The notes beneath the pieces were generated by a model that made no database searches, was not told the origin of the DNA, and was given only the letters and a program-made list of their open reading frames with translations. A stretch of 14,752 nt of DNA, taken from contig CAZHRF010000025.1 of the NCBI GenBank assembly GCA_964534625.1, positions 1 to 14,752 on the forward strand. Direction: 5' to 3'. A program made the position numbers and the translations under genes. Positions 1-11,865 of this stretch are shown piece by piece; within the stretch, counting starts at the first letter, position 1; every line of letters begins with the position of its first letter. The DNA comes from an uncultured archaeon (GTDB lineage: Archaea > Asgardarchaeota > Heimdallarchaeia > Heimdallarchaeales > Heimdallarchaeaceae).

Positions 1-109
1 TGGAGAAGCGATAACCCCTCATAGTACTAGTGATAGTACTATTGCTCTTGATTTTGAGGCTGCTTCGTTGAAACAAGAAACCATCTGCCTTTAGGCAGTG
101 GTAGTTCAT
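1..109 (+). mobile_element. Right end of an IS200/IS605-family element (continues left of the window)
   Basis: GAAA(77-80)-CCATCTGCC-TTTA-GGCAGTGG(81-101, hairpin with one bulged T)-TAGT-TCAT(106-109). It resembles the common IS605-type right end GAAGCCCCNNCCTTTAGGNNGGGGTAGTTCAC. Under the IS608 guide/cleavage pairing scheme (GAAT guide gives TCAA), a GAAA guide predicts a TCAT end, which is what is present. Confidence 0.85.
2..94 (+). CDS. tnpB: 5'-truncated C-terminal tail of a probable TnpB (IS200/IS605 RNA-guided endonuclease)
   Basis: Frame 2 is open from the window edge: GEAITPHSTSDSTIALDFEAASLKQETICL*. The GE...SLKQE..CL* tail with its stop inside the right-end hairpin is typical of TnpB ORFs that run through the omegaRNA. 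No catalytic motifs are inside the window, so a non-autonomous remnant cannot be excluded. Confidence 0.55.
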   Translation, partial: GEAITPHSTSDSTIALDFEAASLKQETICL

Positions 110-9103: not shown

Positions 9104-11785
9104 ATGAAACAGTTATACAAACTTAGTAGCGTATTTATGATATGTTGTATTCTTTTATTCCCATCATTGATGAGAATACATGATTCAAATGCATTTAACA
9201 CAAATAGCACTATTAATAACAAAAATGAGAAGAGTATGGAATTGATAAACAACCATTACACCTCTCAACCATCTAACCCACCATCAATCCATAGCACCAA
9301 TCGCGATGAATATTTAGTCACAAGTGAGTATCTTGAAACTGCACAAGACATAATAAATGAAATCAGAGTTACATATCCTTTTGAGAGCATAGGGATCATA
9401 AGAAATCGTGATTTAGCAAAAGTTCAAGCTATCATAGGCTTAACCGATTATTTTCTTGCTACGAAGAGGTATGAAATTATTGATACTACTTTATCTATAG
9501 CTGATTCGCTTTCTCTTGAAGTAAATGATACATTCATTAGAGGTGACTACGATGATGGTAAAAGTGCCTATCCTGTTTATCCCCAAGATAGTTTAGTACT
9601 AATTCTTGCCTTACATAGACTATCATTAGTTCTTGATCTAGACGGAAGAGAAGTAGAATCTTTGCAATATTCTCAACAATCTCAAGATATTTTAGATAAT
9701 CTTATCGAAGTTTTCTATAATAATGCCAATACAAATCTCAGTTCTACGTTGTATGTTAATGCTGATGGACAGATCGTTGATGGTGACTATTATCCCTCAG
9801 CTATCTCAACAGCCTTATTTACTCTTGCTTCTTATGCTTTATCTAATACTACTGCACTTGAATATGCTAAAAATGCCCTAGATAGTTACTTAATTGATGG
9901 TCGTGAAACAGTCACTGTTTTCGAGGAAGAGTCAGCATATATTGTTAGAAGTACAATAAATACAGAAATGACATTATATAATGTTACTAGATTGCAGGAT
10001 AATGCGTACTTTTTGACAGCTTTACTACAACAAAGTGCATATCAAGAATCATTAAACAATAATGCACAAGCTGATGACTATATGATTCAAGCCAGTCTAT
10101 TCTCTGAAGGTATAACGGGAATATTTTTTAACTTTTTTACGGGATTACTACACACACAATACAACTTAGTTACCGAAGTTCTCTCATCAACAGCCTTTAC
10201 ATATGAGAATAGTGTTACAATTTCAGCATTTATAGAATTTTATAGACGGCACAAGGATTATTGGGATTTCAGACCCTCGTTACAACCTATAGTTGATCTT
10301 TCGAGAAATCTTTATTATACCTTGTACTCTCCAGGAGAATTACATTTCTTACCGGGTTATACCTCTTCTGGGTCTTTTATTACGTTTGACAGCTCAATAA
10401 TTCTTAGAAATCCTGCTATTGTAAATTATCAAGCTATCACTTTTTTGAGTAAAGTTTTACCTGTCTCAACGATATTTAGCATACCCTTAGAACCTAAAGT
10501 GGGAGAAAGTTTTACTTATCGTTTGAATATTTCGTATGATGAAACCACCTCAATTTATGGCTCATCTAACATTTCTATGAGTATTAATCTTAAATCAGCT
10601 ATTTATATGACATTTAATTCATCAACGTCCAATACATCGTTAGTTGTTAGTTCAACGAATTTAAATGGTGAAACTAAAAAAAATCAAACAATTATTGAAC
10701 AAACATTAAGTTCTTCGGTTGGAGGAGAACAATTAATCGAAGTAACGATTTCTTATTCCAACTATAATTTAATTTGGATCAATCATTTTCTGTTTTTCAC
10801 TCAAAAAATAAGCATAAAAACAGATCCAAATGAAATTTCGACAACTCAAGGGCAAGATGATTTTGTAAGATTTGCTGTTATCTGCGAAAATACTCAAGGT
10901 AATCCTGTTGTTGATGCTTTAGTAGATGTAAAGGTATCAGATGACATTTTTTTCACAGAAATTACTGCTCCAGGTGGAATAGCGCATTTTGAATTACCTA
11001 TTCATGAAGTATTCCAATTAGATGAAAGTCAGTCCCAAAATAATCCCCTTTCAATGCAACAATCTGAAAGTAACACTAGAACATTAAATATTTCAGCTTC
11101 CAAACCCGGTTTTGATTTTTCTTCAATTAATAAAACAGCAATTTTGCGAAGAAATAGGTTACAGATCTATTTTAGCAGAGATTTAAATATTAAGCGAGGA
11201 TCAGATTTAACCGTCACAATTTCAGTAGAACCTCAAATTCCAACTCATGTGGGGAATCCGAGAGGAGAATTCTTTTTAGCGGGAGAGCACTTGTCCTTTA
11301 GTGGACAACCAGAAATTAGTTTGCCTACTCAAATAACCCTCAGAACAGCTAAGTATGATACTGATATTGAACTAGCAATAAAAATTATTTCCGATAACTT
11401 TCAAGAGCAATGGTTTAACCAAACCATATTTATTGAAGAATTAGATGCATTTGAGTTTGTTTATTTCTATTTCGAAAAAGCTATAAGTTCAACATGGATA
11501 CAAGTATTGGGTTCTTTAGGGGTGCTCTGGGCTATCCTTTGGAGACAATTTCTCCTGGTAATTGGGGCATTAAATAGATGTCCATATTGTGGAGAAACAA
11601 CCAAGAAAAAGTATAGCGTCTGTCGATATTGTGGCCACATATTAAATCCAACTAGCTATAAAGATTTACAAGGTACAAAAGATAAACAGAAAGGAAAAAT
11701 AACAAAAGAAGAACACAATACCTTTGAATCTGACAACATAAATAGTAAAAAAATTGATATAGATACTGAAGAGAAAGAAGAATAG
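9104..11785 (+). CDS. Large type-I membrane/surface protein: signal peptide, helical alpha/alpha-toroid-like region, beta-sandwich domains, C-terminal TM, cytoplasmic zinc ribbon (893 aa)
   Basis: Signal MKQLYKLSSVFMICCILLFPSL. Recurrent helix motifs (YPQDSLVLILAL, LQDNAYFLTAL, TYENSVTISAF) reminiscent of six-hairpin glycosidase-like barrels. GNPVVDALVDV...TAPGGIA...ISASKPGF looks Ig-like or carboxypeptidase-regulatory-like. TM WIQVLGSLGVLWAILW; CPYCG-x8-CRYCG; many N-x-S/T sequons. Confidence 0.75.
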   Translation: MKQLYKLSSVFMICCILLFPSLMRIHDSNAFNTNSTINNKNEKSMELINNHYTSQPSNPPSIHSTNRDEYLVTSEYLETAQDIINEIRVTYPFESIGIIRNRDLAKVQAIIGLTDYFLATKRYEIIDTTLSIADSLSLEVNDTFIRGDYDDGKSAYPVYPQDSLVLILALHRLSLVLDLDGREVESLQYSQQSQDILDNLIEVFYNNANTNLSSTLYVNADGQIVDGDYYPSAISTALFTLASYALSNTTALEYAKNALDSYLIDGRETVTVFEEESAYIVRSTINTEMTLYNVTRLQDNAYFLTALLQQSAYQESLNNNAQADDYMIQASLFSEGITGIFFNFFTGLLHTQYNLVTEVLSSTAFTYENSVTISAFIEFYRRHKDYWDFRPSLQPIVDLSRNLYYTLYSPGELHFLPGYTSSGSFITFDSSIILRNPAIVNYQAITFLSKVLPVSTIFSIPLEPKVGESFTYRLNISYDETTSIYGSSNISMSINLKSAIYMTFNSSTSNTSLVVSSTNLNGETKKNQTIIEQTLSSSVGGEQLIEVTISYSNYNLIWINHFLFFTQKISIKTDPNEISTTQGQDDFVRFAVICENTQGNPVVDALVDVKVSDDIFFTEITAPGGIAHFELPIHEVFQLDESQSQNNPLSMQQSESNTRTLNISASKPGFDFSSINKTAILRRNRLQIYFSRDLNIKRGSDLTVTISVEPQIPTHVGNPRGEFFLAGEHLSFSGQPEISLPTQITLRTAKYDTDIELAIKIISDNFQEQWFNQTIFIEELDAFEFVYFYFEKAISSTWIQVLGSLGVLWAILWRQFLLVIGALNRCPYCGETTKKKYSVCRYCGHILNPTSYKDLQGTKDKQKGKITKEEHNTFESDNINSKKIDIDTEEKEE

Positions 11786-11809: not shown

Positions 11810-11856
11810 ATGAACTACCCCACCCTCAAGGACGGGGTTTTCAAGAAGACGTTCAC
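11810..11856 (-). mobile_element. 47-bp non-autonomous IS200/IS605-derived mini element (PATE/REP-like single hairpin)
   Basis: Minus strand: TTAT|GTGAACGTCTTCTT-GAAAA-CCCCGTCC-TTGA-GGGTGGGG-TAGT-TCAT|. GC-rich island in an AT-rich convergent intergenic region. It shares GGTAGTTCAT with 100-109, and the stem pairs fully (two G-T wobbles) only on the minus strand. Confidence 0.75.
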
Positions 11857-11865
11857 ATAAAATCC

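Follow-up and report, generated by a model that had tools for sequence, protein, structure and literature searches.

A 47-nt single-hairpin element in an Asgard-type archaeal genome as a probable terminal-only remnant of an IS200/IS605-type transposon

The window, i.e. the whole stretch of DNA that was analysed, covers the initial 14.75 kb of a 44-kb contig. The 47-nt single-hairpin element on its minus strand is a terminal-only PATE, a kind of element that has already been described (Dyall-Smith et al. 2011; PMC3119063) and is now found in a new host lineage. As a whole, it is best explained as a terminal-only remnant ("solo hairpin") which was left after a deletion between the two end hairpins of a longer transposon, and we put the probability of this explanation at about 0.65. 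The most strongly founded part of it is the composition of the element: judged by comparison with the longer elements of the same genome, it is very probably a chimera that joins the 5' part of a left end to the 3' part of a right end. The mechanism was presumably slippage or another repeat-mediated deletion, and the collapse probably occurred in place, rather than the element arriving as an already collapsed unit.

Genomic setting

The genome (3.37 Mb in 120 contigs, 32% G+C, 89.8% complete) is archaeal: it encodes ribosomal protein S8e, which matched only archaea among the control genomes, and has two Snf7/ESCRT-III genes that scored above the Pfam cut-off. The public runs containing the locus are microbial-mat metagenomes from one study. 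Two intact ORFs converge on the element, which lies in the 161 bp that separate them. The plus-strand ORF (9104-11785), which encodes 893 aa with no Pfam match at E <= 0.001, ends 24 nt from the element, and the minus-strand ORF, encoding an HD-domain protein, ends 90 nt from it on the other side.

At the orthologous site in 40 relatives, the HD-domain gene alone was matched, at 65-68% identity, and the intergenic DNA was not comparable. A search for related loci with the HD-domain protein yielded no relative. Exact matches of both flanking proteins led to Logan contigs that come from several runs belonging to the same study; these end inside the repeat on both sides and are therefore uninformative about alleles at the site. 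Exact-pattern scans of collections of genome contigs and of metagenome contigs with the 33-nt chimera gave no match, and neither did a scan of the metagenome contigs with a degenerate left-end pattern.

Structure of the 47-nt element

Read on the minus strand from 11860 to 11810, the sequence consists of TTAT, GTGAACGTCTTCTT, GAAAA, CCCCGTCC, TTGA, GGGTGGGG, TAGT and TCAT. This agrees exactly with the parse given in the earlier note (TTAT, 14 nt, GAAAA, a stem of 8 bp capped by a TTGA loop, TAGT TCAT), including the position of AAAA at +16 to +19. The element proper extends from 11856 down to 11810 and directly follows the TTTAT target or transposon-adjacent motif (TAM; 11857-11861), of which TTAT occupies 11857-11860. 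All parts lie on the minus strand. The segment GTGAACGTCTTCTT (+1 to +14; 11843-11856) is derived from a left end. It is followed by GAAAA (+15 to +19; 11838-11842), in which the left guide AAAA stands at the foot of the stem and GAAA overlaps it, displaced by 1 nt. The chimeric subterminal hairpin (+20 to +39; 11818-11837) combines CCCCGTCC of the left type, the TTGA loop and GGGTGGGG of the right type, and contains the crossover interval TCCTTGAGGG (11823-11832), 10 nt that are exactly common to both parental hairpins. The right-end-derived tail TAGT TCAT (11810-11817), with which every right end in the genome terminates, carries TCAT (11810-11813) as the equivalent of the right cleavage site.

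The span from GAAA to TCAT is 33 nt, the same as at positions 77-109 of the window. The claim of equal spacing thus proved correct as far as length is concerned, but 77-109 does not belong to the parental right-end type, in which (C30:34399) the span is 32 nt and GAAA lies directly at the stem foot. An imperfect subterminal palindrome takes the place of terminal inverted repeats in the 47-nt element, and no target-site duplication is found between the flanks GGATTTTAT and ATTAACAAG.

The 8-bp stem includes G.T and T.G wobbles (alternatively, it can be drawn as 7 bp with a bulged T), and in the minimum-energy fold the A before the stem is suggested to pair with the T after it. With a folding energy of -6.7 kcal/mol (z = -1.3 against shuffles; z = -0.9 with flanks included), the stem alone does not clearly exceed shuffled sequence in stability. 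Folding is far stronger for the left end of the parent family (-11.3 kcal/mol, z = -3.9). In the left end at C30:32987-33039 (= L021:288-340), a second, outer helix (TCTTCTT/AAGAAGA) surrounds the subterminal hairpin; the 47-nt form has lost this helix, including its 3' strand. An Rfam search of the window returned no family. It is thus the repetition of the element in the genome, and not its folding energy, that makes it more than a chance hairpin.

Longer elements with the same ends

A search of the genome with the hairpin core gave 29 matches, about 18 of which are left ends of longer elements. These left ends all follow TTTAT, start with (G/T)TGAACGTCTTCTT GAAAA and continue past the hairpin with ATGAAAAGAAG. 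The target (T)TTAT that had been predicted for the parent family was thereby confirmed, as TTTAT precedes all of the approximately 18 left ends as well as the six of six single-hairpin copies of this family.

When each left end was paired with the next right end, a series of sizes was obtained: tnpB elements of 1413 bp (C30:32987-34399) and 1107 bp (C7), both with a broken frame, protein-less PATEs of 389-399 bp, and two-hairpin mini-elements of 161 bp (C58:1846-1686) and 142 bp (C36:17705-17564). The tnpB elements, PATEs and mini-elements form a graded deletion series, in which the two mini-elements fall between the PATEs of about 390 bp and the 47-nt stubs.

In the 1413-bp element, tnpB is the sole gene and is split between two frames (IS605 OrfB HTH and TNB zinc-ribbon). 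Matches to the TnpB zinc-ribbon were found at 11 places in the genome, mostly in short frames. The only long intact TnpB frame seen (C42:7112-8389 = L024:313-1590; 425 aa, OrfB_IS605 and TNB) is flanked by sequences lacking the hairpin ends of the families studied here, and it may belong to a different type of element. The Y1 transposase domain (PF01797) had no match in the 89.8%-complete assembly, in which a tnpA copy could have been left unassembled because of this incompleteness and the location of repeats at contig ends. Among 30 genomes from the same taxonomic family, 4 have a PF01797 match; the tnpA loci of relatives have ends that differ from those described here and allow no usable comparison.

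Left-end and right-end parts of the element

From +1 through +39, the 47-nt element equals the left end of the element at C30:32987 except at +1 and +35, and both positions are polymorphic among left ends. Position +1 is G in the 47-nt element and in the left ends of the PATEs of 389-395 bp, and T in the long tnpB elements; position +35 is T in the 47-nt element and C in the C30 left end. The comparison of the first 19 nt with left ends of full elements, which the earlier note had recommended, thus showed that +1 to +14 are identical to the PATEs of about 390 bp and one base off the long tnpB elements. The last 23 nt of the 47-nt element are exactly those of the right end at C30:34399.

The left and right identities overlap in the 10-mer TCCTTGAGGG, which is the longest exact homology of the parental hairpins. 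In the 1413-bp element (C30:32987-34399), the two hairpins are direct repeats that can be aligned over about 27 nt with 4 mismatches and a 10-nt exact core. A G-C pair in the left end and an A-T pair in the right end occupy the same stem position, where the chimera carries the mismatched combination G.T. The T in the 3' arm was found in all six single-hairpin copies of the family starting with TTTAT/KTGAACGT (the slash marks the element boundary) vs only 2 of 18 left ends (Fisher p = 2e-4). A chimera would not be needed if there were a long element whose left end naturally continued with TAGTTCAT. The exact parent, combining G at +1 with a TTGA-loop right hairpin, is absent from the assembly.

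Single-hairpin elements in the genome

In total, 28 single-hairpin elements with unrelated flanks were curated in the genome. They fall into three end families: TTTAT/KTGAACGT... (6 copies, including the element at 11810-11856), TTTAC/TAGACTAR... (2 copies) and TTTAY/CT...CTAGCCAGAA... (about 20 copies). Each end family also has long members, with left ends that continue with ATGAA. The six copies of the first family are near-identical, 46-47 nt long, each located after TTTAT and in unrelated flanks, and four of them are identical or differ by one base. The pattern that had been proposed as a check, namely many copies preceded by TTAT, ending in TCAT and lying in unrelated flanks, was therefore found. 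Such a multi-copy pattern is expected both from mobility and from the repeated collapse of parents that are nearly identical, and so cannot tell the two apart. The identical copies are uninformative in this respect since, with a single 10-nt stretch of exact homology, independent collapses would converge on one product.

The crossover points differ between copies. The copy at C2:61243 has the right-end A-T pair and a TTTA loop, which places its crossover further 5' (5' of the A-T pair), and the copy at C21:32721 has its crossover in the guide, beyond which it follows the right-end type. Three junction types occur within the TTTAY/CT...CTAGCCAGAA family. The differing crossover points define at least eight chimera classes and hence at least eight independent fusion events. 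Together with the chimeric anatomy, this recurrence supports the suggestion of the earlier note that the element is the scar left when the left and right hairpins of a full element, being homologous, recombined.

RNAalifold, applied to the 28 copies as aligned with MAFFT, returned no consensus structure, the arms of the different families being out of register, and the structure is consequently argued family by family and not by a covariation statistic. Guides and targets were compared across the same 28 stubs, and the fourth base of the guide was found to covary with that of the target between families. TTAT was combined with A at this guide position in 8 cases and with G in none, TTAC with G in 14 and with A in 2, and the rest were ambiguous. 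The left rule in this genome is thus AAAA with TTAT, and AAAG, AATG or AACG with TTAC. Genuine right ends have GAAA at the foot and the terminus TCAT.

Nearly all 28 stubs are intergenic, in short gaps, or touch just the final codons of an ORF. Two ORFs of at least 100 aa end in or at a stub (C2:60104-61243 and C2:41593-42354), and one of them stops exactly at the stub terminus. TCAT reads ATGA on the other strand and contains the stop codon TGA, so that a transposon terminus can supply or replace the stop codon of a host gene. At C7:6874-6932, a minus-strand stub is directly followed by a second right-terminus-like sequence, GATAGTTCAT, on the plus strand; these may be two remnants abutting in opposite orientation.

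Collapse and homology of the end hairpins

The genome contains two types of right end that differ in their relation to the left-end hairpin. A 16-nt right-terminus motif of the type with a left-end-like hairpin occurs 29 times in the genome, whereas the reversed motif has no occurrence; in 30 relatives, the count is 0-1 per genome. These 29 termini comprise 23 single-hairpin elements and 6 genuine right ends.

The other type is represented at the start of the contig by the right end of a different tnpB element (1-109, plus strand), from which the stretch 77-109 had been taken for comparison in the earlier note. This stretch reads GAAA CCATCTGCC TTTA GGCAGTGG TAGT TCAT, with a bulged T in the hairpin, and its CCATCTGCC/GGCAGTGG hairpin is unrelated to the left-end hairpin. 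The contig begins inside the 3' end of this tnpB element; positions 1-109 match C113 and C64 at 95-97%, and some 20 PATEs or long elements have right ends that match positions 51-109. All 24 termini of the CCATCTGCC/GGCAGTGG type follow a tnpB 3' region or guide-RNA region, and none is a single-hairpin element.

Single-hairpin elements thus account for 23 of 29 termini with the left-like hairpin and 0 of 24 with the unrelated one (Fisher p = 8e-10, the copies within a family being not fully independent). Collapse requires homology between the two end hairpins.

Discussion

According to the origin proposed here, a tnpB-only IS200/IS605-type element, or a protein-less PATE derived from it, would have inserted 3' of TTTAT between two convergent genes. 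The left and right subterminal hairpins of this family are direct repeats, imperfect over some 27 nt, and recombination or slippage during replication from one to the other would have deleted the entire core and one hairpin copy, leaving the 5' part of the left end, one hybrid hairpin and the tail of the right end. The 47-nt copy is now most likely an inert relic, since it has no omega-RNA scaffold, cannot encode a protein, and belongs to an assembly in which a transposase was not found.

The closest parallel is found in Haloquadratum walsbyi, in which the near-terminal palindromes of PATEs and of transposons of the IS605 type are direct repeats of 19-22 bp, and repeat-mediated removal of the core and one repeat yields a 52-bp "terminal-only" element (PMC3119063). 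The tnpB-only transposon ISHwa23 was reduced from 1500 bp to 52 bp in this way, and complete and collapsed forms were observed at the same site in two strains in four cases (PMC3119063). Like the Haloquadratum terminal-only PATEs (HqIRS46, ISHwa23), the elements described here have a tnpB-only (IS1341-type) or PATE parent with palindromes that are direct repeats, have lost the core and one repeat copy, and consist of about 50 bp of fused termini present in many copies. Unlike them, they reside in an Asgard-type archaeon from a microbial mat and not in a haloarchaeon. The repeats are imperfect in this genome, which leaves a recognisable chimera with a G.T mismatch and mappable crossovers, in contrast to Haloquadratum. 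A full-text literature search on terminal-only collapse gave no further paper using those terms.

The mechanistic model for ends of the IS200/IS605 type is IS608 of Helicobacter pylori, in which a 4-nt guide immediately 5' of the foot of each hairpin recognises the cleavage site and the left cleavage site lies 19 nt 5' of the foot (PMC3201880). The subterminal hairpin, a possible extrahelical T, the 4-nt guide and the distance of the left site (19 nt) are the same, and the IS608 rule applied to this genome assigns AAAA to TTAT, AAAG or AATG to TTAC, and GAAA to TCAT. The differences lie in the sites (TTAT/TCAT here, TTAC/TCAA in IS608), in the distance of right cleavage from the foot (8 nt here, as read from the sequence alone, and 10 nt in IS608), and in the single hairpin and missing transposase gene of the 47-nt form.

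Like the ISGst PATEs of Geobacillus (PMC10055086) and the PATEs of about 390 bp of the same genome, the 47-nt form is non-autonomous, and it has the left end and the TTTAT target in common with the latter. Protein-less PATEs, unlike the 47-nt form, keep both hairpins and the TnpB guide-RNA scaffold; with only the last 23 nt of the right end left, the 47-nt form cannot supply a guide RNA. Solo LTRs provide an analogy only: terminal direct repeats recombine, the interior is lost and one hybrid repeat marks the insertion, although the element class is unrelated and the hairpins measure about 27 nt compared with LTRs of hundreds of bp.

The question that bears most directly on the interpretation is whether the element still moves. 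The earlier note regarded one hairpin with overlapping guides as possibly acting as both ends, AAAA directing the cut after TTAT and GAAA the cut after TCAT, and a 47-nt unit fused once and spread in trans by a Y1 TnpA would then be a minimal mobile element. A dual guide is sterically conceivable for the 47-nt copy if modelled with the extra A-T closing pair, which puts GAAA at the stem foot with AG 3' of it, as in the right end; unless this pair forms, the guide at the foot is AAAA of the left type and GAAA is displaced by 1 nt. Mobility would account for the six near-identical copies in unrelated flanks, bounded exactly by TTTAT and TCAT, and it has precedents in the PATEs of about 390 bp, which clearly spread in trans in this genome, and in six strain-specific Haloquadratum insertions, all of the 52-bp form, for which the authors suggested mobilisation of the stub (PMC3119063). 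Identical products are, however, also predicted by independent collapse, with one 10-mer being the sole long exact homology, and the eight or more chimera classes point to repeated origin. Moreover, 8 of the 28 copies (with GAATG or GAACG) lack GAAA in any register and yet belong to the commonest subfamily, so that abundance in the largest family is apparently independent of a dual guide. On the 3' side of the stem, the bases correspond to the right-end type, whereas in IS608 a robust synaptic complex depends on left-end bases there (PMC3201880). The hairpin is weakened by its G.T mismatch (-6.7 kcal/mol vs -11.3 kcal/mol for the left end), and the assembly contains no Y1 transposase match. 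We therefore regard spread of a once-fused unit by this dual-guide route as unlikely, and current excision and reinsertion of the 47-nt unit, in which the fused hairpin with its overlapping guides would still be a substrate for a TnpA acting in trans, as quite unlikely on the sequence evidence. The amplification of one collapsed founder would also give four near-identical copies, and this counts against collapse in place.

A deletion between elements is another way to obtain the same product, in that the left end of one element would have recombined with the right end of a nearby second element in the same orientation, removing also the intervening host DNA and both cores. The same homology would permit this, and only the side of the site with the HD-domain gene is conserved in relatives, although at 65-68% identity their synteny is uninformative. 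With the stub in a 161-bp gap between intact convergent ORFs, no sign of missing genes and nearly all 28 copies in short intergenic gaps, such an event seems very unlikely. It is hardly credible that the element has no transposon origin, i.e. that the hairpin arose by chance, that it is simply a right end in decay, or that it is a host element of the REP kind which depends on a RAYT, even though the hairpin alone is not significantly stable and the site downstream of two genes resembles the position of REPs, since the homology stops exactly at TTTAT and TCAT. The 39 nt of left-end identity exclude a chance hairpin and a plain decayed right end.

REP/RAYT systems consist of a Y1 RAYT gene and hairpins with a 5' GTAG-type motif, often in paired arrays. 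No PF01797 match was found in the assembly, the hairpins have no GTAG motif at the foot, and the copies are unpaired and carry transposon boundaries, which argues against this class. MITEs are defined by terminal inverted repeats and a target-site duplication; they were rejected as well, because the inverted match between the ends GTGAAC.../...GTTCAT is partial and limited to 5-6 nt, and a duplication is absent. REPs, and the free-standing IS605 stem loops of Borrelia plasmids (PMC2775950), resemble the 47-nt element in being short single hairpins that are related to IS200/IS605, intergenic and without an adjacent transposase. The 47-nt element differs from both in that the exact transposon boundaries (TTTAT/...TCAT/) are kept and neither a GTAG motif nor a RAYT or Y1 gene was found. 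The earlier placement of the element as an intermediate towards REP or PATE repeats is justified in so far as it is a PATE of the terminal-only type (PMC3119063).

Taken as a terminal-only remnant, the 47-nt element adds figures (23 of 29 vs 0 of 24) to an obscure observation of 2011, and the imperfect repeats leave the crossover mappable. The small GC-rich hairpin repeats of this Asgard-type genome would be collapsed IS605-type transposons and not regulatory or REP-type elements, which is a caution against over-reading some 28 similar hairpins across the genome. Since stubs outnumber surviving elements for the left-like hairpin type, end-to-end collapse looks like a main route of decay for these tnpB elements. 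The stubs record former insertion sites as well as the TTTAT target or TAM of the family's TnpB. If the element were mobile after all, it would be the smallest mobile unit of the IS200/IS605 type and a plausible bridge from transposon ends to REP-like repeats.

Collapse may also have consequences for the action of TnpB. Excision requires pairing between the cognate target motif and the guide (PMC10055086). Unlike scarless excision, collapse would presumably not restore the sequence at which cleavage by TnpB is expected (for the mechanism, see PMC10055086): it keeps 47 nt between TTTAT and the old flank, and so would escape the TnpB cleavage of a vacated site. Such an escape could explain the accumulation of stubs in this genome.
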